A stretch of DNA of 64,000 bases, from IMG/VR virus record IMGVR_UViG_3300042400_000593; one strand, 5' to 3'. Below the pieces are notes generated by a model. It worked only from the letters and a program-made list of their open reading frames with translations, had not been told where the DNA came from and searched no databases. The DNA is from a virus. Its lineage: Duplodnaviria > Heunggongvirae > Uroviricota > Caudoviricetes. Each line of letters starts with the position of its first letter. The first letter of the stretch is position 1. Of this stretch, positions 1,118 through 49,000 are shown in pieces. A program made the translations under genes and the position numbers.

Positions 1118-1795
1118 TTATTTGTTTACAATACTCATAAATTCTGCACGAGTAGTTGGATCGTTTTTAAATGCACCACCTAACTTACTAGTAACAGTAG
1201 AACTGCCAGTATCTTCTACACCTCTTGCAGCAACACAATAATGTTTTGCATCAATAACTACTGCAATATTATCAGTGCCTAATATGTATTCTAATGCATG
1301 GAATACTTGTTCGGTTAATCTTTCTTGTACTTGCGGACGTTTTGCAAAGTATTCAACTACACGATTAATTTTGCTTAGTCCAAGTACAACCTCGTTTGGA
1401 ATATAACCAACTGTTGCAAAGCCGTCAATTACAACTCCGTGATGTTCACAATTACTTTGTATGTTTACATTTCTTTCCACAACAATTTCATTGTAGCCCA
1501 TTTTGTTTTTAATAGTAGTACACTTTGGAAAGTTTTCTTCTTTAAGTCCAAAATATATTTCATTTGTGTACATTTTAGCCATTCGATTTGGTGTTTCTGC
1601 TAAACTATCATCTGTTAAGTCCATTCCTAATGTTGACCATATTGTTGTAAATGCGTTTTCAATAATGTCAATTTTTGTTTTATTATCAACTACTAGGGCT
1701 GTATTATTAATCGGAGTTTCGACTCCTTTACTAATTAAATATTCTCTTACTCGTTTACCTAACGCTGGATCTGTTTTAGTTTTATCAAAGCTCAT
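1118..1795 (-). CDS. folE: GTP cyclohydrolase I (FolE type I)
   Basis: Motifs NCEHHGVVIDGFATVGYIP and HYCVAARGV correspond to the FolE zinc/active-site motifs (CEHH ... HxCMxxRGV); size 225 aa. Confidence 0.85.
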   Translation of the reverse strand: MSFDKTKTDPALGKRVREYLISKGVETPINNTALVVDNKTKIDIIENAFTTIWSTLGMDLTDDSLAETPNRMAKMYTNEIYFGLKEENFPKCTTIKNKMGYNEIVVERNVNIQSNCEHHGVVIDGFATVGYIPNEVVLGLSKINRVVEYFAKRPQVQERLTEQVFHALEYILGTDNIAVVIDAKHYCVAARGVEDTGSSTVTSKLGGAFKNDPTTRAEFMSIVNK

Positions 1796-2892: not shown

Positions 2893-3249
2893 TTAGTTAA
2901 ATCTGTCATTTTTTACCTCCGATCTTGCTATTTCTAAAAACATTTGATATTTTTCGTATGCTGCTTTAACAGTTGGATTAGAATCTCTAACATACATATC
3001 TTCATAATATTTTTTATTCCAGTCTTCGCACTTTTCAGCTTTGTCAATTAACTTTATAAAATCGTTCTCGTGTATTTTAACAGTTAATGACCGTGTAACG
3101 TTTGCTCTTTCGCTTGGTAGGTTTGATCTTGACCAATCTAACGAATAGTTATCACCTGCAGCATAAAATTGTTCAACGTCTATGCTTCGTATACCGTGTT
3201 TCTTAGCTATTGAATGTAGTTCCATTATTTCTTCCAGTAGTTTTCCCAT
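2893..3249 (-). CDS. hypothetical protein (118 aa)
   Basis: ORF track only. Confidence 0.4.
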   Translation of the reverse strand: MGKLLEEIMELHSIAKKHGIRSIDVEQFYAAGDNYSLDWSRSNLPSERANVTRSLTVKIHENDFIKLIDKAEKCEDWNKKYYEDMYVRDSNPTVKAAYEKYQMFLEIARSEVKNDRFN

Positions 3250-3755
3250 GGAAAGTCAATCCAAATCGGATCGTCTCGTTTATCAAATTCTTCAGCACAA
3301 TAATCAACATGTGCATTGCTAGCAGAATTATCAAACACTGTAGCAAATCTTACATTTTTATGCCAAACATCGTGTTTCCATCTTATAGAATCTGGTAAAC
3401 ATAATGATTGCCAATCTTCTTTAATCCAATCGAGTGTTGCACCCGAATCGTTAATATCGTCTACAATTAAAATGTTTTTAGCACGTCCGGTACTTGCTAG
3501 TTCGTCATCAGTAACACCAAATGCATCACAAGCCATCCATGCATTATGTTCATTGTCGTCTGGATGGTCACGTAAACTAACATGTAATGTTAGCATCTTA
3601 ACTCCGAGATACTGACTAAGTAAGTTAGCGGGGATAAGTCCCCCGCGTGTGATTCCGACAATGTAATCTGGTTTCCAATTAGCAGCTTGAACTTGGCGTG
3701 CTATCTCTAATGCGGCACCTTCTAATTGTGCCCAACTATATTTTACTACTTTCAT
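3225..3755 (-). CDS. xanthine-guanine phosphoribosyltransferase-like (Gpt-like, type I PRTase)
   Basis: YIVGITRGGLIPANLL and KNILIVDDINDSGATL align with E. coli Gpt GIIAVSRGGLVPGALL and FIVIDDLVDTGGTAV (PRPP-binding motif); 176 aa versus Gpt 152 aa. Confidence 0.7.
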   Translation of the reverse strand: MKVVKYSWAQLEGAALEIARQVQAANWKPDYIVGITRGGLIPANLLSQYLGVKMLTLHVSLRDHPDDNEHNAWMACDAFGVTDDELASTGRAKNILIVDDINDSGATLDWIKEDWQSLCLPDSIRWKHDVWHKNVRFATVFDNSASNAHVDYCAEEFDKRDDPIWIDFPWENYWKK

Positions 3756-14781: not shown

Positions 14782-17355
14782 TTATTGTACGCCGTTTAAT
14801 CTTGTAGACATATCAGCTACTGCTTTCTGTGCTTCAGGATTTGAACTTTTACCTACATCTGCCATTAATGTTCTAAGTTGAGCCATTAATGCTGCCATTT
14901 CTGCATCAGAAGGATCTGCTGCCGGAGTTACAGGTGGAGTTGGAGGTGTTGGAGGAGTTACTGGAGTAGTACCGCCGCCATCGTGATGTGGTTTATGAAT
15001 ATGTGGTTCAGGATTATGTATTGGATCTGGTTTAGGACCTTGTCCACTATGATATGCGTCCCATGCAGCCATACCGCCTGCACCTGCTGCTGCGCCACCT
15101 AAGAAGCTAGCAGTTTTTGGGTTTTTGTTAACAATATCGCCTGCACCGTGTGCAATTTTATCTGCTCTAGTCAATGCTGTCGGACCTGCAGAACTTGCTC
15201 TAGACAAAGCTGGCTCACCTTTAGCACCACGTACTAAGTTTTTACCTGCGTTCCAAGCACCTTTTCCAATTTTTGCTAATGCATCACCAATGCCTTCGTT
15301 AGCTAATTCGTCCATAAATGCAGGATCTAATCCACTTTCAATTAATGATAATCTTGCACCTAATGCTCTAATAGATTCAGCTACAGGTTGCGGAGCTGCA
15401 TTAGTACCTGGGAATTTAGGATCTGGTTGGAATTTAGGGAACACTCTGTCATATGCCGCTTGTGTTGCTGGACCGTAAATACCGTCGACTTTAAGATGTT
15501 CACCGTTAGCATTTAACAATTCTTGCCATTTCATAATTTCAGGATTACCTTGTTTATGTACTGGACCGTGCGGATGTGGTTTAGGATGTGGTTTTGGTCC
15601 AGGTGGTGGCATTGGGCCTTGTCCGTTATCACCTGCTAATGCACTATACCCAGCCATGCCTGCAGCTAATCCTGCAATAGCAGCATTTCTTTTACCACCT
15701 TTCTCTGCAGCTTTTTCACCTTTGCCTGCAAAATTATAGTTTTTACTTTTGCCAAGTGCATTTACGTCCATACCGCCTTGTGCGTAAGTTGCATCATTAG
15801 CTGCGCCTCTTGCACCATATGATGCGTCATTTGCTGCTGTTCTTTCTAATCCGCCTGCTGCGGCACCTGCGTCATTAGCTGCTGCTTTTCCTGCATCTGC
15901 TGCAGCATTGCTGCCCCATGCTGGGCCTGCAGCTGGTTTACCTAAATGACTTACATCACCGGCACCTTGTGAAGTTGCACCTTTAAGTGCGCCCCAACCC
16001 ATAGACGCGTCATTAGCTGCTGCTTTTCCTAACGCGCTTGCATCATTAGCTGCTACTTTGCTAAGTATTTTGCTACCTACTGTACCCCAGTCTTCGGCTA
16101 CTTGTGGATTGTTAATACGTTCCAATGTATCACGCATAGCTGCAATTGATTCAGCTACTGTTAATTGTTTCATTTCTGTACCTTCTTTAATGCCAAATTT
16201 TGCTTGTGCTGCTTTAGTTTTAGGCCCCATAATTCCGTCAACGCCGTCGTGGTTAGGACCGCTTGTACCTAAGTCAGCACCTTTAGCTTTTAATTGTTGT
16301 TGCAATGCCATGATATGATTAGTACCAGCATTACCTGCAGGATGCGGACCTACTGGAGTTTGTTGGGTACCTAAAGTATGTGCATTAGCTGCATCGACTG
16401 CTTGTCCTGCAATATATCGTTTACCTACTACACCTGCAGCACCTGCAAGACCTTTAGCTGCACCGCCCGGAGTTACAAAACTTCCAGCTAAGTCACCACC
16501 ACCGTATAACCATGGACTTCTTTCTTCGGCTGCTTTATTAGCAGCAAGTTCCCCTGCTAGTTCGTCTTTATATTTGGTTCCTTTAACTAAACTTTTAACC
16601 CCGGCATTAATATTGCTACCAGTACCCCATGTAACACCGTTCCATACACCGCGTCCAAGGTCTCCTGCGTCGCTTGCAAGATCTTCATTTAACTGTTCAT
16701 AACCGAAGCTGTCAAGTAATGCATTAGCCATACCGTATGATTCTTTAAGTCCAGCAGGTGCATTTGCTAGTCCAGCACTTGCATCTTTCATACTAGTTTG
16801 AATGTTGTTTAGTGTATTAGCAATATTTGGAGGAGTAATAGCATTGGCAGCTGCTGCATTTGCACCAGGTGATCCTAAGCTATTAGCTGCTAAGTTTTTA
16901 TCAGCGCGTTTTTTACGTAATTCTAAAATTTTATTAAACAAGTCCATCATTTGTTTAATTTTATCATGTAACGCATCTGCATCACCTGAAATTTGAGAAC
17001 TTTGACTAACTAAGTCCGCGTTTGCTTTTTTAAAGGTGTCTTCGTTGTCAAACCAACCTGCCTGCGGCAATCTAGCGTTTTTAGGCAATAGACCAGCTGC
17101 TGATAATTTTTGCGCAATTTCAAATGGTACTTCATCGTCTACTTCGCCTTCGTTTGAAATATAATTTCCATTTACTGGATCAACTAATCCTTCTAAACCG
17201 TTTTCTTTAGCTAATTGTGCTAATTTTGGTATTCTTACCTTATCATCTTGTTCATACCCTGATGTTACTGCAATGATTGCAGATAGTGTTAACCCTTCAG
17301 CCAACATTCCATTATTAATGTTGTCTAGTTTATTCATTAAATCTCTAAAATTCAT
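14782..17355 (-). CDS. Ala/Gly-rich low-complexity protein with two peptidoglycan-binding (PG_binding_1-like) modules
   Basis: LQQQLKAKGADLG...DGIMGPKTKAAQAKFG and WQELLNANGEHLKVDGIYGPATQAAYDRVF match the PG-binding DG.xGxxT motif; six AANDA(S/G/T) repeats; PKPHPKPHPHGP and TPPTPPTPP tracts; 857 aa. Confidence 0.65.
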   Translation of the reverse strand: MNFRDLMNKLDNINNGMLAEGLTLSAIIAVTSGYEQDDKVRIPKLAQLAKENGLEGLVDPVNGNYISNEGEVDDEVPFEIAQKLSAAGLLPKNARLPQAGWFDNEDTFKKANADLVSQSSQISGDADALHDKIKQMMDLFNKILELRKKRADKNLAANSLGSPGANAAAANAITPPNIANTLNNIQTSMKDASAGLANAPAGLKESYGMANALLDSFGYEQLNEDLASDAGDLGRGVWNGVTWGTGSNINAGVKSLVKGTKYKDELAGELAANKAAEERSPWLYGGGDLAGSFVTPGGAAKGLAGAAGVVGKRYIAGQAVDAANAHTLGTQQTPVGPHPAGNAGTNHIMALQQQLKAKGADLGTSGPNHDGVDGIMGPKTKAAQAKFGIKEGTEMKQLTVAESIAAMRDTLERINNPQVAEDWGTVGSKILSKVAANDASALGKAAANDASMGWGALKGATSQGAGDVSHLGKPAAGPAWGSNAAADAGKAAANDAGAAAGGLERTAANDASYGARGAANDATYAQGGMDVNALGKSKNYNFAGKGEKAAEKGGKRNAAIAGLAAGMAGYSALAGDNGQGPMPPPGPKPHPKPHPHGPVHKQGNPEIMKWQELLNANGEHLKVDGIYGPATQAAYDRVFPKFQPDPKFPGTNAAPQPVAESIRALGARLSLIESGLDPAFMDELANEGIGDALAKIGKGAWNAGKNLVRGAKGEPALSRASSAGPTALTRADKIAHGAGDIVNKNPKTASFLGGAAAGAGGMAAWDAYHSGQGPKPDPIHNPEPHIHKPHHDGGGTTPVTPPTPPTPPVTPAADPSDAEMAALMAQLRTLMADVGKSSNPEAQKAVADMSTRLNGVQ
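15795..16065 (-). repeat. in-frame AANDA(S/G/T) peptide repeats (about 6 copies) inside the 857-aa gene
   Basis: KVAANDASALGKAAANDASMG ... KAAANDAGAAAGG..TAANDASYGARGAANDATYAQ. Confidence 0.6.
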
Positions 17356-19618: not shown

Positions 19619-20023
19619 TTAAATCCCATACCTGTTACGTTTTTTATTAGCAACTGGACTAACTTTGTGAACGTCATCTAATTCAGATGACTTTTTAGAA
19701 GAACCTAGAGACGAGCTGCTAACACCGATGCTTTTTGCAGCACCATCTAAAATCTCTTGATCGCCATCAGTATATGCAAGGGTAACAAAGTTACCGCCGA
19801 TCGGTCCTTCTTTATCCATAGATCGACTAGGCGATCCAGCTAATGCTACACCGAATCTATATGCATGATATGGATTGTTATTGTTATCCAATGCAGGCCA
19901 TGCAGATAAATTTTTTAATGCTTTTCTTGTACCATGATGCAATTTGCTTTCTTGCATAATCGCTGTCATTTCTTCTACGGCAACCTCGAATTCCCGTATG
20001 TCTTCGTTTGTATATCGTTTCAT
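19619..20023 (-). CDS. hypothetical protein (134 aa)
   Basis: ORF track. Confidence 0.4.
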   Translation of the reverse strand: MKRYTNEDIREFEVAVEEMTAIMQESKLHHGTRKALKNLSAWPALDNNNNPYHAYRFGVALAGSPSRSMDKEGPIGGNFVTLAYTDGDQEILDGAAKSIGVSSSSLGSSKKSSELDDVHKVSPVANKKRNRYGI

Positions 20024-21723
20024 TATTCATTCCGTTGTACATTCATTCCCTCCCGTGTAGCTTCGTATAGTGTTTTACCACATACTGTGATATCTTCACT
20101 TACACCAGTTATTAGTTGGAAATTAATTTTGTCACCTAGTTTAGCGTACTCACGCGCTAATGTACCGCTAGCGTTATTAGTGTTATCTTTACGATTTCCA
20201 CTACTAACAAATTTTAATACTACATGTTCCCTACCATTCGGACCGCGGGCATAATCCGATGTGCGAGATGGGCCGCTATTCCAATTGTTAAGTGCAGATT
20301 CTAAACTGAGATTACCTGCACCTAATCTATCACTTCCTGCCACAAATGTCATATGTCTGTAACCTCTATCATATAACCAACATGCAGCTTGCCATGGATC
20401 TCTAACATATTCAGTTACCATAAAGTTAGAATAATCAGGATGAATCTTTTTAATAAATTCAGTCTTAACATTATATTCTAATGGGTCACTTTTTGGATCA
20501 TGCTTATTGCTTGCAAATATGTATGCATGTTCTTTTCCGAGTTCTACAGTTTGTTGTATAACGGTTTTATGTCCGACTGTAGGAGGATTCATTCTACCAA
20601 AGCAAAAAGTTGCCATTGGCATTTTACTTTTTATTTCAATTTCTTCAACAGATACTTTATATTTAGAAAAATTAGCACGACTAAATTCTAATCGATTAAC
20701 AATTTTTATTTTATTAGTACCGGCCCCGCAAACATAACCTTCATGACTTATAATACTATTTATTACAGGTTGTACTGCACTGTATAGTTGTTGCTCGTCA
20801 ATTTGTTGTTTAATATCTAATTTTAAATTAGAAATTGCACTCCATATCTCCCATAGTCCGATAATACCGTTGTAAACATCTTTACGTATTTTCCCATTTG
20901 GTAAAAACAATTTAGAATGAGCAGATTGTGTGAGTCGAGGAGTAGTAAATTCGATAAATCGTTTAGCAATGTTAATAGAGAGATCTTCACTATTAATCAT
21001 ACTAGTGATAAATGGCCCCATTGCAGTAATTACACTTTTACATTTTAACTCAGTTAATTTAGCAATAGTAGCATCTACGTCGCTGGAATGTGTAGCAAGT
21101 GCAGTTTGTACAGCTTGCAGTAATACGCTGTTTATAACAACATTTGGCTGTTTCATCTCAGTTGCAATAAATGTAATATCCTTACAATCTGAAAATACAT
21201 CAAAACCAGTAATCGGTTCATCTTCTGCAGTTAATCCGGAAATAAATGTATGTACTGCAATACCACCAATACTGCTAGCAATCGACTGCCCTAAATCACT
21301 AGTATGTTTAACTCTATATTCAACTGTGTTAGGTTTAAAGACGAACGAATCACCGATACTTGCAGGAGTGTTAACCCATAGCAAATCTCCCATGTAATAA
21401 GTGTCAGTTATGTTTGGAATTATCTTGTCTAATGCAGGACGGAGAATGTCTTCCTTATCCCATAAATCATTGCGATCTATATTGCGGGTTAAGTCATATT
21501 CTCTAATTGAAGTAAATTCGAGGTTGCCTTTAGCAACTTGTTTGAACATGTGCTTATCAACAAGCACTAAAGTTCCATTTTTATCTCTACCAAAAACTAT
21601 TGCAGGAAAGCCGTCCCACTTAATAGTTAATGTTGAAAGATTAATTAATTCATTAACTGCTCGGTGAGCTCCTGCAGATCCTTCGTTAATAATAAGATCT
21701 TCAGGGTGTGCAATTCCTGCCAT
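20023..21723 (-). CDS. two-module nucleotidyltransferase: N-terminal ligase-type KxDG motif region plus C-terminal HxGH (cytidylyltransferase-like, NMNAT-fold) domain
   Basis: TLTIKWDGFPAIVFGR (Lys35, ligase motif I-like) and later EGYVCGAGTNKIKIV (motif IV/V-like); C-terminal FCFGRMNPPTVGHKTV resembles the (H/T)xGH box of NMNAT/PPAT/NadM-class adenylyltransferases; 566 aa. Confidence 0.4.
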   Translation of the reverse strand: MAGIAHPEDLIINEGSAGAHRAVNELINLSTLTIKWDGFPAIVFGRDKNGTLVLVDKHMFKQVAKGNLEFTSIREYDLTRNIDRNDLWDKEDILRPALDKIIPNITDTYYMGDLLWVNTPASIGDSFVFKPNTVEYRVKHTSDLGQSIASSIGGIAVHTFISGLTAEDEPITGFDVFSDCKDITFIATEMKQPNVVINSVLLQAVQTALATHSSDVDATIAKLTELKCKSVITAMGPFITSMINSEDLSINIAKRFIEFTTPRLTQSAHSKLFLPNGKIRKDVYNGIIGLWEIWSAISNLKLDIKQQIDEQQLYSAVQPVINSIISHEGYVCGAGTNKIKIVNRLEFSRANFSKYKVSVEEIEIKSKMPMATFCFGRMNPPTVGHKTVIQQTVELGKEHAYIFASNKHDPKSDPLEYNVKTEFIKKIHPDYSNFMVTEYVRDPWQAACWLYDRGYRHMTFVAGSDRLGAGNLSLESALNNWNSGPSRTSDYARGPNGREHVVLKFVSSGNRKDNTNNASGTLAREYAKLGDKINFQLITGVSEDITVCGKTLYEATREGMNVQRNE

Positions 21724-22152: not shown

Positions 22153-22773
22153 CTAATTAAGGATCCGCTCAACAGTTAAATTAACGTTGCCTAGATGCAA
22201 TCGTACAAACAACAAATTGCGTTCACCAGTAACGTAAAGTTGAGTACCTGAATTATAAATGCCAGGTGATACTAAATTAGATTTAGTACGAGGTTGTAAC
22301 TTTATATTTTTATTACCTTCTGCCCATTCAACAAATTCTGTATTAATATTAGTAATAGAACCTAATGTAACACGAAATTCATATGGAGTATCAGGCATGT
22401 AAACCATACCTTTTTCTAAACCTTCTGCCGGCAAACCGATTGATACGATTATGTTTTCAGGAACGGCGTTCATTAAACCTAAAATATCATCATAGTTATT
22501 AGTATAAACATGCAATCTTGGTTGTTCAAACCTAGTTGCAAAATTTTCCATATCCATTATATATTCGTATATTTGAGGTAACAAACTAAATTCATCTTTT
22601 ATATGCGTCCATCTCGGTTTTATACCTTGATTCATAGTATAGTTAAACTCTTGAGTGTACTTGCGTTTGTCTTTACCTCGAAATATATCCCCGTTCCAAA
22701 GACGGAGTACAATGTTGTACTTGTACTCGCCTTTGTACAGTTTCTTAACAGTGTTATACACTGACATGGTCAA
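22153..22773 (-). CDS. hypothetical protein (206 aa)
   Basis: ORF track; overlaps the clpA-like stop by 20 nt. Confidence 0.45.
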   Translation of the reverse strand: MTMSVYNTVKKLYKGEYKYNIVLRLWNGDIFRGKDKRKYTQEFNYTMNQGIKPRWTHIKDEFSLLPQIYEYIMDMENFATRFEQPRLHVYTNNYDDILGLMNAVPENIIVSIGLPAEGLEKGMVYMPDTPYEFRVTLGSITNINTEFVEWAEGNKNIKLQPRTKSNLVSPGIYNSGTQLYVTGERNLLFVRLHLGNVNLTVERILN

Positions 22774-25036
22774 TCTCTAATTTGTTAAGTGTAATTGCAG
22801 GTACTTTAGGGGTTTTCGGTTTAGCAATAAGTGCAATTTTATCATCAGTGACACTAATTGTTAACCAGCCACCATTTTTAAGATCACCGAACAACATCAT
22901 TTTAGCAAGATCACGTTTGATCTCTTTATCAATTACACGATGTAATGGTCTAGCACCCATCTTAGGATCAAATCCTTTTTCTAACAACCAGTTAGTTGCA
23001 GTTTTGTCAATCTTAATACGAATACCTTTATCTTTAACTTGTTCACGTACTTCATCGATAAACTTGTTAATAACTTTAACCATAGAGTCTTTACTTAACT
23101 TATTAAACGTAATAACACCGTCTAACCTGTTACGGAACTCAGGCGATAAAAACTTCTTAAGATCTGCATCCGAGTAGTCTTTTTCTTGAGTACCAAAGCC
23201 AATCTGATTCTTTTCTGCAGATTGCGCACCTGCATTAGTAGTTAAAATTAACACAATGTGACGACAATCAGCTTGTTTACCATTTGATCCAGTAACAAAC
23301 CCGTTATCCATCATCTGTAGTAATACAGTAGATACATCGGGATGTGATTTTTCGATCTCATCAAATAATAATACAGCGTTAGGATTCTCTTGAATTTGTG
23401 TAATTAACAACCCTGCATTGTCTTCAAAACCTACATAACCTGGAGGACTACCGATCAGTTTACTAATACTGTGTTTCTCTTGATACTCTGACATATCAAA
23501 ACGCAATAATTTAGTATTCAAATGTTTAGCAAGTGCTTTAGCAGTTTCGGTTTTACCACAACCTGTAGGACCCATAAACACAAAGCTACCGATTGGTTTG
23601 TTTTCTGGTTTTAAGCCTGCTTGTGCAACCATAATTTTGTCAACAATTTCGGTTAATGCAGTATCCTGACCATACACTTCAGCTTCAAGTTTTTCTTGTA
23701 GAGTAACTAGTGCAGTAGTTTCAGTTTGCATAATTTGCTCAACTGGCATATTAATCATTTTAGCTAATTCAAATTGAATTTCAGCTTCAGTAACTACTCG
23801 TTCGTCAGCAAGTTTTAAATTAAAGCGTGAACATGCACAATCGATTAGGTCAATAGCTTTGTCCGGTAGCTTTTTATCAGCTTGATATTTTACTGAAAGT
23901 TTAATCGACGCTTGCAATGCATCATCTTTGATTTTAAGTTTATGATGCCCTTCGTAATACTTCTTAATACCTTTAAGAATCTGCAAAGTCATTTCCTGTG
24001 TAGGCTCGTCAACTGTAATACGTTGGAATCTACGCATCAATGCACGATCTTTTTCAAAGTGTTTGCGATATTCATCCCATGTAGTAGATGCAATAACTTT
24101 AATATTACCTTTACTAAGAGCAGGTTTCATCATGTTAGCTAAATCATTAGAAGAATTACCAGATGCACCTGCACCACTAATCATATGTGCTTCGTCGATA
24201 AACAATACACACTTGCCTAACTTTTGTAGAGATTTAATAACTGATTTGAAGCGTTCTTCAAAGTCGCCACGGTATTTAGAACCAGCTAACATAGCAGCAA
24301 TATCTAAATTATAAACAGTATAATCTGTTAAAAATTCAGGAACTGCGCCTTGTACGATGTTATATGCAAGGCCTTCTGCAATTGCAGTTTTACCTACGCC
24401 TGGATCGCCTACTAAAATAACATTATTTTTGTTACGACGACCTAGTGCTAATGAAATATGCTCAAGTTCATCAACACGACCGATAACTGGGTCAATTTTG
24501 TTCTGCTTAACTTCTTCGTTTAAGTTAGTAGTGTAAGCTTGAAGTGCTTTATTGTTAACAGGCGACGATTTAACTGATTCGGTAGTAATATCGTCATCGT
24601 CGGCTACGTTAACTAAGTATTCGTTAAATTTTTCCTTAGAAATATTTACTTGCGATACGTAATAAAACGCCCATGATCTTTTTTCACCTAACATTGCTAG
24701 GAAAAAATCAACAGGCTGAATCTTTTGTCCGCCGTTAAACAACACTTGGGTAAATGCACGATTTAATGATCGTTCAACTGCTTGTGTTTTTTTAGGTTTA
24801 ACTACTACTTCGGGTGTAGTAATCTCATGACATTTAGTTTGCAGATGATCTAAAACTAAATTTTTAAGATACACAGTGTCTGCGCCATACCCTTGAATAG
24901 TATTAGCAAATTGTTCATCTTCCATGAGCATCGAAAACAACACATGCTCAAGAGTAACATATTCGTGATGCATGTTTTTTGCAGCAGTAATAGCTTTGTC
25001 AAAAATAGTTTGTAGTTTTTCGCTTGGTTCAACCAT
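22754..25036 (-). CDS. clpA: ClpA-type AAA+ unfoldase (Clp_N domain, two AAA+ modules, ClpP-docking IGF loop)
   Basis: HEYVTLEHVLFSML is a Clp_N repeat. Walker A motifs are VGDPGVGKTAIAEGLA (D1) and GPTGCGKTETAKALA (D2). RGDFEERFK, LPDKAIDLID and GARPLHRVI blocks are near-collinear with E. coli ClpA. QIGFG lies at the position of the ClpA IGL loop. There is no ClpB middle domain; 760 aa. Confidence 0.9.
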   Translation of the reverse strand: MVEPSEKLQTIFDKAITAAKNMHHEYVTLEHVLFSMLMEDEQFANTIQGYGADTVYLKNLVLDHLQTKCHEITTPEVVVKPKKTQAVERSLNRAFTQVLFNGGQKIQPVDFFLAMLGEKRSWAFYYVSQVNISKEKFNEYLVNVADDDDITTESVKSSPVNNKALQAYTTNLNEEVKQNKIDPVIGRVDELEHISLALGRRNKNNVILVGDPGVGKTAIAEGLAYNIVQGAVPEFLTDYTVYNLDIAAMLAGSKYRGDFEERFKSVIKSLQKLGKCVLFIDEAHMISGAGASGNSSNDLANMMKPALSKGNIKVIASTTWDEYRKHFEKDRALMRRFQRITVDEPTQEMTLQILKGIKKYYEGHHKLKIKDDALQASIKLSVKYQADKKLPDKAIDLIDCACSRFNLKLADERVVTEAEIQFELAKMINMPVEQIMQTETTALVTLQEKLEAEVYGQDTALTEIVDKIMVAQAGLKPENKPIGSFVFMGPTGCGKTETAKALAKHLNTKLLRFDMSEYQEKHSISKLIGSPPGYVGFEDNAGLLITQIQENPNAVLLFDEIEKSHPDVSTVLLQMMDNGFVTGSNGKQADCRHIVLILTTNAGAQSAEKNQIGFGTQEKDYSDADLKKFLSPEFRNRLDGVITFNKLSKDSMVKVINKFIDEVREQVKDKGIRIKIDKTATNWLLEKGFDPKMGARPLHRVIDKEIKRDLAKMMLFGDLKNGGWLTISVTDDKIALIAKPKTPKVPAITLNKLEIDHVSV

Positions 25037-25072: not shown

Positions 25073-25100
25073 TATACACTATTTTATAATAATGTCAACT
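25073..25100 (-). promoter_or_regulatory. sigma70-consensus promoter for the clpA-like gene (TTGACA-N16-TATAAT)
   Basis: Minus strand gTTGACAttattataaaatagtgTATAATataactttatttaatactacAAGGAGctactaatATG; the -35 overlaps the dnaJ-like stop. Confidence 0.55.
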
Positions 25101-25928
25101 TAATTGGCTTTGTATTTGCTGTAACTGTGCTACTAATACAGGATCTGTAACTGATACTGGAGCAATTTTAATAACAGTAACAAATCTTCCAGTTTGTTTA
25201 CTGTGTAAATTAGTAAACCCTGCGCCTGCCTTTGCAAATTCTGTTCCTGATTCAACACCTGGCCTAATTGGCATTTGAACAGTATCGCCTGTTATTGTTT
25301 TAACAGTTTTAGTACATCCAATCATTGCTTCGATTGGGGAAATGTCTAATGTTGTATATAAATCATTTCCTTCTCGTCTAAAATTACGGTCAGGTAGTAT
25401 ATGTACAGTTACATTAAGATTCCCGCGTGGAACATTAGGTATCGAATCGTCACCTAATCCATTATATCTAATAGTATCACCGTGGTCAATACCTGCAGGA
25501 ACATTAATGTTTACAGTCTGCGGTCGACCACTCGGTAACGTAAACGTAGCATCTACTTGTTTTCCATTAAACGATTCGACTAATGTTACTTGAACTTGTA
25601 GATTTAAGTCTCTGTTACGTTGTTGTCTAAATCCATTGCCAAACATATTTGTAAAATGTGCATGTTGACCAAACATATCGTTCATGTCAAAATGGAAATG
25701 TTGTCCACCGCCAAAGCCACCAAAGTGATGACCGCTTTGTTGCATATCGTATTCTTGACGTTTTTGTGGATCACTTAGTGTGTCATATGCTACGGAGATA
25801 TCTTTAAAGGTTTCGGGAGAACCGCCTTTGTCTGGGTGATGTTTGTTTGCTAATGAACGATATGCTTTTTTAATATCGTCCTGTGATGCGTCTTGCGACA
25901 CACCTAATTTTGAATAAAAGTCTGTCAT
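25095..25928 (-). CDS. type II J-domain co-chaperone (DnaJ/CbpA-like; no zinc-finger domain)
   Basis: J-domain DFYSKLGV...YRSLANKHHPDKGG (HPD tripeptide); Gly/Phe-rich linker GHHFGGFGGGQHF; C-terminal client-binding domains similar to CbpA; no CxxCxGxG repeats; 277 aa. Confidence 0.85.
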   Translation of the reverse strand: MTDFYSKLGVSQDASQDDIKKAYRSLANKHHPDKGGSPETFKDISVAYDTLSDPQKRQEYDMQQSGHHFGGFGGGQHFHFDMNDMFGQHAHFTNMFGNGFRQQRNRDLNLQVQVTLVESFNGKQVDATFTLPSGRPQTVNINVPAGIDHGDTIRYNGLGDDSIPNVPRGNLNVTVHILPDRNFRREGNDLYTTLDISPIEAMIGCTKTVKTITGDTVQMPIRPGVESGTEFAKAGAGFTNLHSKQTGRFVTVIKIAPVSVTDPVLVAQLQQIQSQLS

Positions 25929-33950: not shown

Positions 33951-34331
33951 TTAGTACATCGGTTGACTAAAGTCAAACTCTTGTACAGTTGATGCGTTTG
34001 ATGCGCCTAAATTAATGTCTGTAGGTCGATGATCTGATACTGCTAAAATTGACTTAGTTTCAACTCGTCTAACGGTGAATACAGTATTATTATCTTCTAC
34101 TTGAACACCACGTGTCCACCGTCCGTGTTCAACTAAGATCCAATCACCAATTTTTACATCGTGTTGATCAGGACCGATTTTATAAACTTTACCCCAACGA
34201 GGTTTAATTCCTTCAGTTTTTCCATTATCGCTACTAACAATAATACCGCTAGCGGTTACTTGTTCTTCAAAATTCATATCCGAAACAAGTACATTATCAT
34301 GAATAGTTTCTAATTGTTCTGTTATAATCAT
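33951..34331 (-). CDS. GroES-like co-chaperonin (T4 gp31-like)
   Basis: LETIHDNVLVS..EEQVTASGIIV..KPRWGKVYKIGPD..VKIGDWILV..ILAV follows the Cpn10 consensus (L.P..DRVLV..E..T.GGI.L...KP..G.V.AVG.G...VKVGD.V.F...IL.V); 126 aa. Confidence 0.6.
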   Translation of the reverse strand: MIITEQLETIHDNVLVSDMNFEEQVTASGIIVSSDNGKTEGIKPRWGKVYKIGPDQHDVKIGDWILVEHGRWTRGVQVEDNNTVFTVRRVETKSILAVSDHRPTDINLGASNASTVQEFDFSQPMY

Positions 34332-40658: not shown

Positions 40659-41192
40659 ATGAAATGGGAAATAGATAAAGAGTTTCATTTTGAAATGGGA
40701 CACAGAGTATGGGCACAAAAATTAAATCATGTTGAGTTAAGTATTTCAACTGACTGTGCCTGCAAGCATTTACACGGACACAGCTATTCAATTAAAGTAT
40801 TTTTAGGTTCTGATACGTTAGATCATTCAGAAATGGTTACAGACTTTAAGAATTTAAACTTTATGAAACAATTTGTAGATGATGTGTTAGATCATAAGTT
40901 TATGATTGATATCAATGATCCAAACTTTAAGTTAATTACAGGTAACGAATGGAGCAAAGCCAAACACCCATTTGCAAACTTTACTAACTTAGGAAGTTAC
41001 AACTGGGTTGGATTAACTGAAGGTGAACAATTACATTATAACAGTTTTGTACTAGTAGATTTTGTACCAACTAGTGAAAACATTTGTAAGTATTTGTTTG
41101 AATATGCTCAATCACGTATAGGTGATGTAGCAAAGGTTACTGCAGTTGAGCTGTGGGAAACTCGCAAAAGCCATTGTAGATATACAGGATAA
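40659..41192 (+). CDS. queD: 6-carboxy-5,6,7,8-tetrahydropterin synthase (QueD)
   Basis: EMGHRV ... DCACKHLHGHSY is the QueD Cx3HGH zinc/active-site box (E. coli EAAHRL ... CGRLHGHSF); 177 aa with a C-terminal extension. Confidence 0.75.
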   Translation: MKWEIDKEFHFEMGHRVWAQKLNHVELSISTDCACKHLHGHSYSIKVFLGSDTLDHSEMVTDFKNLNFMKQFVDDVLDHKFMIDINDPNFKLITGNEWSKAKHPFANFTNLGSYNWVGLTEGEQLHYNSFVLVDFVPTSENICKYLFEYAQSRIGDVAKVTAVELWETRKSHCRYTG

Positions 41193-41226: not shown

Positions 41227-42222
41227 TTACATAAATTCTTCTTTAAACTGGTCAAACAGTTCAAATGATGCTAGGTTCTTAGCTTTAGATTCCGCCATCA
41301 TGTTACCCCATTCAAGATGTGTTAGTGCCCATCTGTTAATATCTTTATTTGTATAAAAATCACTATGAGCTCGTAATTTACTTTTAGAAGTAGATTCAAG
41401 TAATGTTTCCATAGTTGTCATACCAGTACGAGGTATTAATTCTGATTTTGATTGACTGTAATGGAATGTTGGTCTAACACCTTGCCAACTTTCAAGTACA
41501 CCTTGTATTCTAGGATCAGATGCTTTTATATATTCGCCTGTTTTAATAAAATGATGATGTATATCAAGCACGATACCAACCTTGTCTTTCAAAGCTAACA
41601 ACTCATCTAACCCTTGTTGGTACTCGTCGTTCTCTAATGTTAAGCAGTTACGCAGTTCTGGACTCATTCGTTGCCATGCAGCATCAAAACCTGCTATACC
41701 ACGTCTACCACTAACATGTACATTAATCTTAAAATCTAATTTAGACTGACCGAATCCCATAAATCTTGCCATGTCAGCGTGATATTCAAGTTCTTCCAAA
41801 GATCTAGTAATGACATCATCTCTGTCGCTAGCAATGCACACAAACTGACCAGGATGAAAACTGAGACGAATATTAGAATCTTTAGCATATTGTCCAATCT
41901 TAGATAAGTTTTGTTCGATAATTTTGATTCTTGATGGTTCTTGCCAAAAGCTGCGATATAAATCATGAGTATACATTGGAATAACATCAGACCCGATACG
42001 AACCATACGTAAATGTTCATCTAAAGTACCTACCTTTCTAATAAGATTAGAAGTTGCTGTGAGATTTTGCATAGCAATTTCCCACAGCTTTTTTTCTGCT
42101 ACTTGTTTAGATTGACGACCTAGCCATGCAACTGTAGTTGCTCCCATGTTTAATTCTTTAACATTTTCAAACCCGGTTTTAGTGCTGTCAACATACTTGC
42201 AAGCAAAGCCGATTTTTTTCAC
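41227..42222 (-). CDS. uvsE: UV DNA damage endonuclease (UvdE/UvsE family)
   Basis: Blocks KIGFACKY, VRIGSDVIPM, IRLSFHPGQF, INVHVSG, LTLENDE, VLDIHHHF and PTFHYSQSKSE are collinear with the B. subtilis UvsE blocks RFGFVS, YRFSSSIVPL, LRTSFHPNQF, INIHIGG, MTLENDD, VFDFHHF and PKVHLSSPKSE. Confidence 0.75.
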   Translation of the reverse strand: MKKIGFACKYVDSTKTGFENVKELNMGATTVAWLGRQSKQVAEKKLWEIAMQNLTATSNLIRKVGTLDEHLRMVRIGSDVIPMYTHDLYRSFWQEPSRIKIIEQNLSKIGQYAKDSNIRLSFHPGQFVCIASDRDDVITRSLEELEYHADMARFMGFGQSKLDFKINVHVSGRRGIAGFDAAWQRMSPELRNCLTLENDEYQQGLDELLALKDKVGIVLDIHHHFIKTGEYIKASDPRIQGVLESWQGVRPTFHYSQSKSELIPRTGMTTMETLLESTSKSKLRAHSDFYTNKDINRWALTHLEWGNMMAESKAKNLASFELFDQFKEEFM

Positions 42223-42920: not shown

Positions 42921-42953
42921 ACAGTATTTACGTTAAGATTATAAAATTTATTT

Positions 42954-42961
42954 GATAAATA
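42954..42961 (+). promoter_or_regulatory. late promoter-like box GATAAATA upstream of the giant fibre gene
   Basis: tttGATAAATAccgtatcaaacaacattctcacaAAAGGGGtgacacgtaatATG(43003). Confidence 0.45.
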
Positions 42962-43002
42962 CCGTATCAAACAACATTCTCACAAAAGGGGTGACACGTA
43001 AT

Positions 43003-46000
43003 ATGAAACAAGAAATTAAAATCGGTGTACAGGGTAACGACGGCACCGGTGATAGTATACGCGATGCATTTCGTAAAGTTAACGAAAATTTTAATGAAGT
43101 TTATAGTATATTTGGAGAAGGCCGTATAACATTTTCCGAATTAGCTGATGGTTCTGATTATACAGGAAATCAGCTTATTATGGGCAATGCAGTCGGTGAT
43201 AGCTTAACCGCAAGAACATTAACAGCAGGTGAAAATATTGCTATCGTAGTTAGCAGTTCTGCAGTAACTATTGCTTCTAAAGCATCGCAACTTTCAGAAG
43301 ATACAACACCTCAGATTAAATATCCGTTTAACGTAAATTTAAAAGCAATTGGTCGTGTGCCGGAACCAAGCGAAGCATTAGTAGATGCGTTTAATGCGGC
43401 ATGGATCGAACAAACTACACTTGATCAGTTACCAGTTAACGTTGGTTATGCAAATAAGACTTATCTAGCTGTATATAACGGTGTAATTGGGTATAAAGAT
43501 AGTACCGGTAATGTAATTCAACCATCATTAACTACAGTTGAAGGACATCTTGATACTACTAGTGAATTTTACGATCCAGCATTAACTGGTAATTATTTGT
43601 CAACATCAATAGTACCTCGTAAAGATTTAGTTTATCGAGGCGGTGATACGATGTCAGGGCCGCTTTATTTGAATGATCATCCAAATGAGTTAGCTGGTAT
43701 TGTTGGAACCGCAGATAGATCTGAATATCAAGCTGCTACTTCGTTTTATGTTGATAACAAAACATTTTCTAGTAACGTAAACCTATATGTTACTACAAGT
43801 GGTGATGATTTACAATTAACATCACCGCCAGGTAAAGAAGGAAGATTCTGGAATTATTCATTTAATACTATCAGTGCAGCATTATTACATGCTGAATCGT
43901 TGATTAATGTAGCAAGTCAAGAACCCGGACCGTACACACAACGGGTTTCATATTCACTTGGTCCTAATCGTTATTTTTCAAAAATACAAAAAGTTACATT
44001 AACTGGGGGCAACGCTGCTAATCCGGGATATGTTGCTGCATTTAACTTACTACAAGCAAATAAAGAGTTTATTCAATCAGAAACAATTGCATATATTAAT
44101 AAAAAATATGTTAATTCATTTTCATATGATCATGAAACATTAACTATTAAAATTAACTCGTTATTATCTAATATCGGTGAAGATTTAGTATTAGGTGCAA
44201 CTAGCCCAGATTCAGATACATCGAGTACTAACTATAATTCATATTGGGAAGGTGTAAGTTATATTCATGATAATCTTACTAGTGAAGGGTTAATTCAGTG
44301 GGTTGAAACTGTTAATTTTGTAAGAGATCAGATCATCGACTTTTCGTATAATACAACAGCATTACAAACATATACTGAGCAGATTATTAATGCACTACTA
44401 TATGATATGTTGTTTAAAACAAATTACCTAAGTATCCAAACAGGTATAGCATTTAAAGATGCAAATACTAAAGTAAGTGCTGAACAGTTAGCATCGATGT
44501 TAACAATTAATCCGATTACTATTACTGCAGCAGAGTGCAAAGACGGTAATGTGATATTGTCATTTAATACACAATCGTCTATTTTATTCCCAATAGGAAG
44601 TGAAATTTTACTCAATGCATCGTTTATTAGTAAAACAGTTAGTTCTACACCAGTAACTATTTCGTCATACAACAACGGAGCAGTTGTTTCGTTTAGTGTT
44701 ATTGATTCATCTACTTCATCTGTAACATTATCAAACACTAGTCTTAGCTTAGTTGCTGATAAGTTTACAGTGTCAGGAACAATTGATCGTAAAAATTTAA
44801 TTAATCAATTATTGTTAATTCCTGCAGTAAAATCTCTTCCGACTGAAACAAAAACTCTATGGATTATTTCAAACGTTAACATTATTAAAAATTATATTTT
44901 AAATGATACTTTGCCAACTGTAACTTTTCCAACTCCATCGAATCCGCTAGTTGGTTATAATGTAGTAGGTTATAATTCAGCAAAACAATTATTATTAGAA
45001 AATATTTCATTTATACAAGCAGAAACGTTATCATTTTTAAATTCAGAGTATCCGACTGTAATTTATGATAGAGATTTAATTATTCGAGATGTAAATTATA
45101 TAATTTGGAGTTTAGTATATGATTTAACGTACGGTGGAAACAGTCAAAGTGTATACATCGGTAAACACAATTGGGCCACATTATCTAATTTTGTTAATGC
45201 AGCTGAATTAGAAGCATGGGTTCAATCAATAAGACACATTAATATCTTAGCGCAGTCAATTATTACTAATGTGAAATCAGGAGTTACATATCAACAGTCG
45301 GTAAGACAATATAGAAATGATACATTAACTAATGGTAGTGTTGCTTCTACATCAGTATCTACAAATATTACATTAATTGCAGACATTACATCTGATATTA
45401 ATAATGTGCCTTCGTCAATTACGTATCCAACAATTACAATCGGTGTTACTGAATGGCAATCTGTTTATACTAATACATCAAGAACTATATTTACTACCGG
45501 ATCGACTACATCAACTTCTTGGTTTATGAACAAGTATTATCCAGTTATTGATACAGAAATTAAACAAACTAAAATTATAAAATTGTTTAAAGTTATAACT
45601 GATATTATCGAATCCGGGCAATTTCCGACAACATTGCCAACTTATCCGTTACTGGCTCCGGCTATACGAGTTCATAGTGTATCAACAATTACACCAGCAA
45701 TGACTGCCCAAGCAAGAGATTTATTACCATTATCAGTTATAACTAATATTGCAACAAATACTAATGCGTATGTTCTAACAACCTATTCTTCTATTACGTA
45801 TGATCAAACATTGTTTATTAAAGAATTAAAAAGTTTGTTAATTGCGTTATGCTATGATATAACGTTTGGTGGAACTACTGCATTGTACCGTGCATCTAGT
45901 AAATTTACTAAAATTAGTGTTAATTCTACGGTAATTCAAAACATATTTGAACATGCAAAAACTGTTACAGTTTCTTACATTACTGGTCATATTACAGGTG

Positions 46001-49000
46001 ATACTGTGTCAAATACTGTAGCAGCATTAATTAACTCAAAATTTGATAAAATCGTTTATTTTTTAACAACATCGTCAGCAACTAATACATTAGTTCCTAT
46101 TAGTGTCTTTACAAACAACGATACTAACGATATGTATAGTAATGCAATAAAATTAAAAAATCTTATTATAGATAACTCTTCGTTAATTATAAGTAACACT
46201 ATTTCGTTTGTTGATACTACATTATCAGGTGGGTTTGTATACGACGAGTCGTTATGTTATAGAGATATTGGATTACTTGTTGATGCAATGTCGATAGACT
46301 TGATAACAGGCGGGACATGGCAGGCAATTACATCGGGTAAAAGTTTTTACAAAAATTCTAGTGCAAGAACAGTTACAGTTGGCGGATCTCATTATATACA
46401 ATCTTTAGATGGAATCGAGTTTGCTAGAAAAGTTGGTTTACAAGTATTAAATAAACAAACTGCGGTTAGATTCCAATCATTACAACAAACAGTAAGTTTT
46501 TCATCATTAAATAGCTTGCCATCTACGGGAATTAATATAACAGGTAGCACATCAGCAGTTGTTACAGTATCGCAAACAGTAACATTTACTGATTCGGGTA
46601 ACACTGTTACATTGGCAAATCATGGATTTGCCAATGGTACTACGATAGTATTTTCTTCTATCACATCAACTACTGGAATTACAACTAATACACCGTATTA
46701 TATAATTAATTCAGCAACAGATACGTTTAAGTTATCAACTTCGTTAGGCGGTAGTGCAATTACACTAACAACTAACGGTTCTGGTATTATATATGATCCA
46801 ATTACGAAATTTACTGAAAGTTTCCAATCAGTCATTGACATCTTAAATTATGGTATTAGTGTAGCAGCTACACCGTCGTATGGTACAGGATTATGGCATA
46901 TTGCAATTGATAATGGTGGCAATGGGTACGTTGAACAAGGTGCATCAAACAACAATGACTTATTCCCGTCTAAGATTGTAGTCGGGGTCGGATCAACTAA
47001 TGTTACTGCATCTAATGCACATGGTAGTATTGTAAAATACATTTCGGCTACAGATACTTCAGGTACGTCGACAGTATTATCAAATGTTGATACTTTACAA
47101 TTACAATTAACAACTCCGGGGTTTTTCAAAATCTATGAAGAAATTGAATTTGGTGAGCCAGTTAATGGATTAAACTTTACGATTTTTGTTGAAAGTGGTA
47201 TTTATTACGAAGATTACCCAATGAGAATCCCGCCAAACGTTACACTTAAAGGCGATGATGCAAGAAGAACAATTGTTCGACCAAAAGACAGAGCAAGTCA
47301 AAGTTCGTGGAAACGTATATTCTTCTATCGAGATTCAATTATCGATTCGATGGAAATAGGTAATGTTAATTATACTGCTACTTATAGCAGTAGCAATAAC
47401 CATGCTCCAGCAATCGTAGACAATATTTCAGCTACACTAGACAATACTACTGGATCTGTAGTAGTTACATTGAGTGGAAACTATCAAGCACCACTTTCAT
47501 GGATTGGTTTAATATTTGCTGATAATATTACTAGCGGTTTTGGGACAAATTTAACAGAACGAGGTCGAGCTGTTGTTGATTCAGTTAGTGGTAATACACT
47601 AAACTGTACAGTAATTTATCCATTCTCAGCAAGCGGAGTAAAAGCAGCTGGATCTTGGTACTTATTTGATTCTCAAAATTACGGATACCATTACTTAACT
47701 AATCCTGCCGATATTACAAGTACAGCTAAGAACAATAAAGAACTTGATGTATTCTTGTGTAATGAAGGTGTAAGAATTGTTGGATTTACATTCCAAGGAC
47801 ACGGTGGATTTATAATGGTATTAGATCCGACTGGGAATGTTAAAGCAAAATCACCATATATTCAGGAATGTACAAGTTTTGCACAGAGCATTAATTCTAA
47901 AAGATTTGCCGGAGCTCAATTTATCGACGGTTTTGCAGGAAGATTATACGGAACTCTTACTGCAGTAGCAGATGGAGGTATTACTGTTACAGTAACCGGT
48001 GGATCAACTAGTGGTTTACATTTACGACCACCTCAACCACCATGTTCGTTTTATGTATCAGGTGTTCGCTATCAAATAGACCAAGTATTATCTCATACTA
48101 TTAATACAACAACTGCAGTATCTGGAATTGCAGCACCAAACGGAACAGTTGTATTAAGGTTAGATACAACAACACCATATGCAGGTGCTACAGGTATTGG
48201 TATTAACATTGAAACAGGCGGTAACCGTTCAATGTTAGCAAACAATTTATCAATGTTTAACGATTTAGGGTACGGTGTTATTGTAACCAATGGTGGTTTC
48301 TCTGAACAAGTATGTTCGTTTACATATTATGCTTACACAGGGTATTGGGCAAATAACGGTGGTAACATAAGAGCAGTAGGGTGTTCAAATACATTTGGAA
48401 AATATGGTTTAAGAGCATCTGGATATGACGTAACTGAGTTACCTGATTCGGTATCACTTGTAAATAACCTAGTACAGACTGCAAGGGTTTATAAAACAGG
48501 TGCAACTGCATCTGAGATGGCAGCAAATGCAATCAATATTTGGATTAGCGATTATGATTATATTCCAACTAATGTATCTGAATTAGAAATTAATCATATT
48601 ACATCTGGCGGGACAATTACACAGTATTCTGTTTCGTCGGTAACTACAACGTCGATTACCGTTAACAGTAAACTTGTATTAATGTTAACGTTAAACACAT
48701 CGGGTAGAACTAATTCTGTTGGTTCTACAGGATTAACTTACCCGTTGTATCATGACCAGTTACTTATAATTCGAATTTCTCAAAACTTTAAATTTTCAGG
48801 AATTGACAATGTTAAACCAACTAGACCGTCAACTGCTTTACAATTTGTTGATAAGTTAAATGAAGTTTATCGTATCGGTTCGTATAATTTAGTCGATTCG
48901 TTAGGTACGCAATTACCTGCAAACACATCTATTTTACAAAGTGATGTAAATTTCTCATATTATAAATTTTACACTGATACTACTAATATTACAACAACTG

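Follow-up and report, generated by a model that had tools for sequence, protein, structure and literature searches.

A fused gene and its conserved motifs

The DNA analysed here, a 64,000-nt stretch of the tailed-phage record IMGVR_UViG_3300042400_000593 (hereafter the window), carries at 20023-21723 on the minus strand an open reading frame (ORF) of 566 aa plus a stop codon, taken from the ORF list and checked by translation, in which two nucleotidyltransferase modules are joined. The N-terminal domain (residues 1-356; 20656..21723) corresponds to Pfam DUF6267 and in structure models has the fold of a covalent (lysyl-AMP) polynucleotide-ligase nucleotidyltransferase, and the C-terminal domain (residues 366-566; 20026..20628) is a Rossmann nucleotidyltransferase of the HxGH (HIGH) type that resembles the adenylyltransferases of nicotinamide mononucleotide (NMN) and nicotinic acid mononucleotide (NaMN), NMNAT and NaMNAT. 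What is new is the ligase-fold family and its recurrent partnership with an HxGH module; the gene in the window is one ordinary member of it. All features of this gene given below lie on the minus strand.

An initial annotation of the window, made from the letters alone, had pointed to TIKWDG with Lys35, EGYV (within HEGYV 327-331), KIKI (338-341) and an xGH signature (GRMNPPTVGH, 376-385), and the translation contains all of them at these positions. As bare patterns, K.DG and [HT].GH are weak evidence: the first occurs in 14% of shuffles of the 566-aa protein, the second in 8% and both together in 1.2%; of the 78 window ORFs that reach 100 aa, it is the only one to contain both. The claim rests on conservation and fold. 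Among 27 full-length homologues, down to 49% identity, the invariant positions of the N-terminal half comprise K35-W-D-G, G112-D113, K130-PNT, Y136, H158-T159, HEGYV 327-331 and K338/K340, and those of the C-terminal half comprise F373-C-F-G-R377, N379-P-P-T382, G384-H385, G463, D465-R466, S519 and R524. Extending the N-terminal alignment to standalone cyanophage homologues at 27% identity leaves K35, D37, G38, D113, P131-N-T133, Y136, H158, T159, H327-E-G329, V331, K340 and R344 invariant. Some of the invariants are the family's own and fall outside the canonical motifs (H6, E8, D9, P131-N-T133, H158-T159, W294, K301 and R344).

Motif I, K35-W-D-G (21610..21621), supplies the predicted AMP-accepting lysine, which the AlphaFold2 (AF2) models place at the end of strand 32-35, in the position it has in ligases; K35, D37 and G38 are invariant in all alignments. 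By order and pattern, the strand formed by residues 108-117 (TYYMGDLLWV; 21373..21402), with D113 invariant in both clades, is a candidate motif III, and the region K130-PNTVEY136 (21316..21336), in which P131, N132, T133 and Y136 are invariant in both clades, is a family-specific candidate for motif IIIa, with a putative role to match. Between this region and motif IV, the AF2 secondary structure shows an all-helical insertion of ~110 residues (~199-312; 20788..21129), which alignment gaps reveal to be much shorter in the ~300-aa cyanophage form and in which W294, L300 and K301 are invariant. Candidate motif IV is H327-E-G-Y-V331 (20731..20745), with H327, E328, G329 and V331 invariant, and candidate motif V is K338-I-K340 (20704..20712). 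The initial reading of KIKI as motif V stands for K340, which is universally conserved, and falls short for the first lysine, K338, which is replaced in the cyanophage clade (PYKIVDR).

In the C-terminal domain, the (T)xGH nucleotide-binding signature G376-RMNPPTVGH385 (20569..20598) retains G376, R377, N379, P380, P381, T382, G384 and H385 in all of the fused homologues. It is followed by G463-S-D-R466 (20326..20337), a GxDR motif that we take to resemble the GxD motif of NadD and NMNAT enzymes, and by S519-GTLA-R524 (20152..20169), presumably equivalent to the HxGH superfamily's ISSTxxR motif. The G-H of the signature, the G, D and R of GxDR, and the S and R of the last motif are invariant across 37 highly diverged C-domains.

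Structural class of the two domains

The N-terminal half matches Pfam DUF6267 (PF19782) over residues 5-355, with 122.6 bits against a gathering cut-off of 27 (E=3e-35; model positions 5-375 of 376), and its PHROG match is to a family of no assigned function. No ligase family in Pfam or NCBIfam matches it, sequence searches of the PDB with the protein itself (phmmer) and with a 27-sequence profile gave no useful match, and hhalign comparison of profiles with T4 Rnl2, gp30 and Rnl1 returned probabilities below 1%. It is in the AF2 models that the relationship can be seen, both for the whole protein (pLDDT 84) and for residues 1-360 modelled from a more diverse alignment (pLDDT 88, pTM 0.86). 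Ranked by structure comparison, the N-domain alone scores highest against NgrRnl (8.5), then REL1 (7.7), T4 Rnl2 (7.6), Trl1 (7.0), the Pmar ligase (6.9) and T4 Rnl1 (6.8), with other ATP-dependent DNA ligases at 5.6-6.6, the NAD+-dependent LigA at 4.9-5.3 and the vaccinia capping enzyme at 4.9. By fold and motifs the N-domain belongs to the covalent nucleotidyltransferase superfamily of polynucleotide ligases and capping enzymes: the nucleotidyltransferase fold is present in the models and the motif I lysine is conserved in the alignments. The invariant D113, Y136, E328-G329 and K340, assigned to candidate motifs by order and pattern, lie on strands of the AF2 models in the sequence expected for I-III-IIIa-IV-V. 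K340 is followed by a single helix (344-355) and a linker, after which the Rossmann domain begins; the OB domain bearing motif VI, which classical ATP-dependent DNA ligases and capping enzymes have downstream of motif V, is missing from the AF2 models, and Pfam finds no ligase OB or DNA-binding domain.

On the strength of these models we regard it as a solid conclusion that the N-domain has the fold of a polynucleotide-ligase nucleotidyltransferase, and equally solid are the fold of the C-domain, described below, and the invariance of the catalytic-type residues. DUF6267 represents a new ligase-fold family, and the assignment of this half to ligase-type nucleotidyltransferases in the initial annotation is thereby borne out at the level of fold. 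The family stayed a domain of unknown function (DUF) because its relationship to ligases is invisible at the sequence level. A literature search for DUF6267 found no paper mentioning it, and the relationship appears to have gone undescribed so far.

The C-terminal half is labelled differently in the databases, where Pfam places residues 374-427 weakly in the cytidylyltransferase-like family and the PHROG match is named 'cytidyltransferase' (E=7e-26). The domain has the Rossmann-like fold, the (H/T)xGH motif near its N-terminus and the SxTxxR-type motif near its C-terminus that characterize the HxGH superfamily, and its top structural matches are NMNAT, NadM, PPAT and NadD, with PPAT scoring equal to the NMN/NaMN adenylyltransferases. 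Model, structural matches and invariant motifs together uphold the earlier description of this half as HxGH adenylyltransferase-like in fold. We then scanned 37 diverse C-domains one by one against NCBIfam, among them those of the reverse-order fusions described below and those of P-SSM7, S-SZBM1, HTVC008M and PA5oct. The generic superfamily was matched by 32 of them, NadD by 23 (best 1e-6), the NadR-type NMNAT by 13, PRK08887 and the archaeal NMNAT by 8 each, PPAT by 5 and NadM by 4, and not one of the 37 matched a TagD or CCT model. On this last result we reject a TagD-type cytidylyltransferase, a reading that papers on cyanophages have repeated for the family (PMC9146016; PMC12801897). The C-domain family forms a branch of its own that lies closest to the pyridine-nucleotide adenylyltransferases, with NMN as its putative acceptor.

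Fused and separate pairs across phages

A word-indexed search returned 837 relatives of the 566-aa protein, and the 120 that were listed cover the full query length at 47-100% identity, except for one 324-aa fragment; several are on contigs of 300-380 kb, and the identical protein (P0001) is found on public metagenome contigs of up to 372 kb. When a profile was run exhaustively against 1.84 billion cluster representatives, 3,461 clusters matched at E<=1e-3. We scored 146 newly retrieved 50%-identity cluster representatives with one hidden Markov model per half: ~101 were standalone DUF6267 proteins, in size classes of ~300 and ~400 aa, ~41 were DUF6267-to-HxGH fusions, many of them strongly diverged, with each half scoring only 1e-15 to 1e-30, and two (P0286 and P0297) had the reverse order, with HxGH before DUF6267. 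Fusion of the two domains is thus an old and widely distributed trait that arose in either order, and that the modules are coupled in evolution is a solid observation. The initial annotation had known of no described protein with this arrangement, which holds for the literature, where a search on NAD-dependent RNA ligases or ligase-NMNAT coupling found no papers, and does not hold for the databases, which contain Pfam DUF6267, fusions that are common in metagenomes and the split pair in hundreds of cyanophage genomes.

The long fused homologues (700-980 aa) contain no recognizable extra domain, except for one with Pterin_4a after the HxGH domain (P0114). Some metagenomic DUF6267 proteins have other N-terminal regions (P0343, P0356, P0370, P0375, P0242, P0243 and P0376). 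By eye, several relatives show a Pol-beta-like GS...DxD motif in such a region, one has a second, different HxGH motif (GGFKPPHKGH) together with a DxDxT/HAD-like segment and a zinc ribbon, and one may hold a second KVDG copy, its match to motif I being only marginal. Pfam recognizes none of these extra regions, and we give them little weight.

In T4-like cyanophages, tblastn against phage genomes showed the two halves as neighbouring genes annotated 'hypothetical protein' and 'cytidylyltransferase'. The two genes adjoin or overlap in P-SSM7, S-SZBM1 and Syn9, whereas HTVC008M has them two genes apart. In P-SSM7, the DUF6267 gene (L001 3986-4915) and the HxGH gene (L001 4887-6047) share 29 nt, an overlap consistent with translational coupling, and lie downstream of the gp41 helicase-primase gene. 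Linkage to uvsX and gp41, with the pair just downstream of them, is also seen in S-SZBM1 and in the Pelagibacter phage HTVC008M. The P-SSM7 pair is followed by a third small gene, which has the annotation 'possible cytitidyltransferase' and no Pfam match. With a cyanophage query, DUF6267 was found in 471 records (371 named Synechococcus phage, 61 Cyanophage and 24 Prochlorococcus phage, along with OM43 phage Melnitz, HTVC008M and a few others) and the HxGH partner in 375, 61 and 24 records of the same three groups, as compared with 377 Synechococcus phage and 61 Cyanophage records for gp41 helicase as a control. Both genes are therefore present in ~98% of T4-like cyanophage genomes and are essentially core genes of the Kyanoviridae, with near-perfect co-occurrence. 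Phage DLP6 of Stenotrophomonas, considered as a carrier of both gp30 and DUF6267 near RNase H, was rejected: its 60-85 kb region contains no DUF6267.

The HxGH family is also known from virus particles. NMNAT-like proteins of this family have been detected in CsCl-purified virions of three cyanophages (PMC9602691; PMC9146016), the underlying loci being L014 4710-5939 in S-SCSM1, L008 3390-4478 in S-SZBM1, and L015 15407-16291, and in S-SCSM1 the gene lies among neighbours confirmed as virion genes by mass spectrometry. The Pseudomonas jumbo phage PA5oct has a standalone 190-aa HxGH homologue (L011 4953-5525) inside a block of structural genes confirmed by mass spectrometry, with no DUF6267 nearby, and jumbo phages of Klebsiella, Salmonella, Erwinia and Ralstonia have similar copies that stand alone.

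The core status of DUF6267 in cyanophages bears on a gap in their known gene content. According to Clokie, Millard and Mann (2010, PMC2984593), homologues of g30 and rnh 'are not found in cyanomyoviruses', the alternatives being undetected distant homologues or host enzymes, and gp30 has been listed among the non-cyanophage core genes (PMC5349666). In our searches the T4 gp30-type ligase matched 2,645 phage records, with Synechococcus phages outside the ten most frequent organisms and represented by fewer than 63 records. Homologues of the end-healing enzyme T4 PseT (Pnkp) were found in 2,537 phage records, fewer than 57 of them from Synechococcus phages, as against ~371 with DUF6267, and none was seen in the window. 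The scarcity of Pnkp in cyanomyoviruses argues against classical repair of tRNA breaks, and it means that a ligase acting in these phages would have to work on ready-made 3'-OH/5'-phosphate nicks and not on nuclease-damaged RNA ends.

In the window, the fusion gene lies ~6 kb from a family-B DNA polymerase gene, and other genes nearby encode a weak T4 DsbA-like match, a clamp loader, PhoH, dCMP deaminase, Cpn10 and a gp9/10-like giant baseplate protein, from which we take the source to be a distant T4-like jumbo phage of ~33% GC. The immediate neighbours (134, 124, 206, 86, 87, 392 and 199 aa) match nothing in Pfam or PHROG and leave the local context uninformative; a search of 50,697 phage records for DNA nearly identical to the locus gave no match. 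When the neighbours of the pair were compared between the window and the cyanophages for conservation, the one match was between PSSM7_189 and SSCSM1_90, with none to the neighbours in the window. ARAGORN detected no tRNA or tmRNA gene in the window, though the source is a jumbo phage, and no RNA-repair genes were seen there. Among the called genes of the window and a ~10-kb left flank there is no Nampt or NAPRTase, only a 176-aa type I phosphoribosyltransferase (3225-3755, minus strand).

Elsewhere in the window, FolE (GTP cyclohydrolase I; 1118-1795, minus strand), a PTPS/QueD-like enzyme (40659-41192, plus strand) and, just beyond the window start, a faint radical-SAM match (L007 12707-13549) suggest a precursor pathway for pterin or 7-deazaguanine, possibly for DNA modification. 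A 3,126-aa ORF (42952-52332) with a weak N-terminal match to T4 gp9/gp10 is followed by ORFs of 1,341 aa (52401-56426) and 986 aa (56427-59387), all three on the plus strand and probably encoding giant baseplate or fibre proteins. The phage has its own chaperone set, on the minus strand, consisting of a ClpA/ClpB-type double AAA+ protein of 760 aa (22754-25036), a full DnaJ with J and C-terminal domains (25095-25928) and a Cpn10/GroES homologue (33951-34331). The minus-strand gene at 14782-17355 encodes an 857-aa protein of low complexity, with a high content of Ala, Gly and Pro, HPKPHP-type repeats and weak peptidoglycan-binding motifs, which may be ejected or lysis-related; the gene coincides with a local rise in GC to 0.40-0.415 from ~0.33. 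The minus strand also encodes a UvdE UV-damage endonuclease (41227-42222) and a LEM-3-like GIY-YIG nuclease (1810-2724), and a 5'-3' exonuclease of the RNase H/FEN type is encoded just outside the window start.

Possible functions and relation to known enzymes

The explanation we favour, tentatively and with something short of even confidence, is that the protein combines a nick-sealing polynucleotide ligase with an adenylyltransferase that supplies or recycles NAD+ in the same pathway. LigA takes its AMP from NAD+ and releases NMN, which is in turn the substrate of NMNAT. Apart from this NAD+ chemistry, no established connection is known between lysyl-AMP ligases and NMN adenylyltransferases, and it is for this reason that we prefer a strand-sealing enzyme with a local NAD+ supply. 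Lys35 of the DUF6267 module would take AMP from a nucleotide donor and pass it to a 5'-phosphate end, where attack by the 3'-OH would seal the break, and the module would in this way close 3'-OH/5'-phosphate nicks in phage nucleic acid. The HxGH module, acting as an NMN/NaMN adenylyltransferase, would convert ATP and NMN to NAD+ and pyrophosphate, re-making NAD+ locally from the NMN released by NAD+-dependent ligation and regenerating the donor for its own ligase module or for host LigA. The likeliest targets would be DNA nicks that arise in replication, recombination or repair, since T4-like cyanophages, for which this family is core, have no other known ligase. We infer ligation itself, as well as DNA over RNA as the substrate, NAD+ over ATP as the donor and NMN as the acceptor.

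A more far-reaching proposal, which we consider decidedly unlikely, is that DUF6267 is the long-missing DNA ligase, for both replication and repair, of T4-like cyanophages, pelagiphages and the freshwater jumbo-phage clade to which the window belongs, that it is a new ligase family which uses NAD+ as its source of AMP, and that it is obligatorily paired or fused with an NMN adenylyltransferase of its own. If this were true, NMN would become a recycled catalytic cofactor, ATP would pay for each ligation and cofactor regeneration would be built in, giving a self-contained ligase suited to tiny marine cells with small NAD+ pools.

Several observations weigh against a NAD+-coupled strand-sealing enzyme. 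The nearest structures are those of ATP-dependent RNA ligases, LigA is the most distant ligase class, and the protein has no NMN-binding domain of the LigA type. All matches of the C-domains to NMNAT/NaMNAT models score far short of the curated cut-offs (16.7-18.9 bits where TIGR00482 asks for 112, for example), so that NMN is no more than a putative acceptor. Some large cyanophages have the two genes ~90-100 kb apart, jumbo phages of enterobacteria and Pseudomonas (Rak2-like and PA5oct-like) have the HxGH family and no DUF6267, and the HxGH partner is found in virions; in S-SCSM1 the DUF6267 gene, SSCSM1_257, lies ~100 kb away and is not flagged as encoding a virion protein. Finally, the DNA inspected amounts to 64 kb plus ~10 kb of a 372-kb genome, and a conventional ligase could be encoded elsewhere in this phage.

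Other readings have to be weighed against the same data. It is possible, though rather doubtful, that DUF6267 works as an RNA ligase to rejoin broken RNAs of host or phage, for instance tRNAs cleaved by defence nucleases, with the HxGH module in support, for example by maintaining NAD+ for a Tpt1-type step or by itself modifying the RNA ends. An argument for this from the extra-domain partners of some relatives rests on visual motifs that Pfam does not recognize; the window has no tRNA genes, no RNA-repair genes were seen in it, and an HxGH adenylyltransferase belongs to no known RNA-repair pathway. The initial annotation had proposed RNA repair against anticodon nucleases in particular, a putative role that sits poorly with a near-universal core pair of T4-like cyanophages, as opposed to a sporadic accessory or counter-defence gene, and with the large-scale absence of T4-type Pnkp from cyanomyoviruses.

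We think it unlikely that the two modules have separate jobs, the HxGH protein being a virion-carried, NMNAT-like enzyme whose injection keeps up or restores NAD+ at an early stage of infection, for instance against NAD+-depleting defences, DUF6267 having an unrelated intracellular role, and the fusion reflecting mere gene neighbourhood. The virion data speak for such a division, including the case of S-SCSM1, where the NMNAT-like gene lies among confirmed virion genes and the distant DUF6267 gene is not flagged as one, as do the Rak2-like and PA5oct-like jumbo phages that have HxGH alone. Fusions in both orders, kept over very deep divergence, would nevertheless be hard to explain without a shared function, and the near-perfect co-occurrence in cyanophage genomes also counts against separate jobs. 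NAD+ reconstitution against NADase defences, the other role suggested by the initial annotation, is likewise putative; a core gene pair is atypical for counter-defence, and a Nampt-type gene, needed to rebuild NAD+ from nicotinamide, was not seen near the fusion gene, in the window or its flank.

Quite improbable, in our judgement, is an N-terminal module that does not join strands at all and uses its lysyl-NMP chemistry for a capping-like nucleotidylation of a phosphorylated end, small molecule or protein, building a modified nucleotide, dinucleotide or cap together with the HxGH module. Both enzyme superfamilies do make nucleoside-5'-diphospho-X linkages, which is established chemistry, the likeness of DUF6267 to ligases is distant and accompanied by the family's own invariants outside the canonical motifs, and nucleotide-modification genes (FolE, PTPS) lie nearby. 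As for the database annotation, in which the C-terminal half would be a glycerol-3-phosphate or similar cytidylyltransferase for cell-envelope precursors and the N-terminal half an unrelated accessory, the GenBank and PHROG label 'cytidyltransferase' and the TagD-like reading in the cyanophage papers are its support, and we regard it as extremely improbable given that most C-domains match NMN/NaMN adenylyltransferase models and none TagD or CCT, that NMNAT, NadM, PPAT and NadD are the top structural matches, and that the partner has a nucleic-acid ligase fold.

Few ocean viruses are as abundant as the T4-like cyanophages, which have been described for more than 15 years as being without a DNA ligase (PMC2984593). 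With a ligase-fold protein encoded in ~98% of these genomes, next to the helicase and recombinase genes, the question of the missing ligase becomes directly testable, and the protein's constant NMNAT-like partnership, through fusions in both orders, adjacency and co-occurrence, suggests an undescribed link between strand sealing and NAD+ metabolism. If our preferred explanation, a ligase with an NAD+-forming partner, is correct, a widespread annotation would have to be changed from a 'cytidylyltransferase', seen as an auxiliary metabolic gene for the cell wall, to an NAD-type adenylyltransferase, and a DUF with thousands of sequence clusters would gain a function. An active enzyme would moreover be a compact ligase of ~300 aa without an OB domain and a possible reagent.

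The closest structural relatives of DUF6267, the nick-sealing ATP-dependent RNA ligases NgrRnl (Rnl5 type), T4 Rnl2 and trypanosome REL1, share no detectable sequence similarity with it, and it has family-specific invariants (H6, E8, D9, PNT 131-133, H158 and T159). The helical module is located inside the catalytic domain in DUF6267, whereas it forms the C-terminal domain in Rnl2 and the N-terminal domain in Rnl5, and none of the three RNA ligases is known to have a fused or linked HxGH adenylyltransferase. T4 gp30 and the other ATP-dependent DNA ligases are structurally less similar to DUF6267 than the RNA ligases are, and DUF6267 differs from them in lacking an OB domain with motif VI, a DNA-binding domain and sequence similarity. 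The hallmarks of LigA, namely an NMN-binding domain Ia, OB, zinc finger and HhH domains and a closest fold to the LigA adenylation domain, are absent from the protein. The C-domain has neither the Nudix nor the kinase partner domain of known phage NMNATs (PMC7824862). It also differs from NMNAT, NadM, NadD and NadR in that many of its homologues have C-terminal extensions and that its standalone form is virion-associated in cyanophages. The protein as a whole does not correspond to the known phage NAD+ systems, whether NadM-Nudix, NadR-like or NARP1/2. The last of these, which Osterman et al. are said to have described in 2024, reportedly consist of Adps and Namat (NARP1) and of NMNAT and Nampt (NARP2). 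They resemble the present case in that a phage-encoded adenylyltransferase could in principle rebuild NAD+, and they differ from it in two ways: no NARP-type partner is seen in the window or its left flank, the constant partner being instead a protein with a ligase fold, and the pair belongs to the core gene set and not to the accessory genes.

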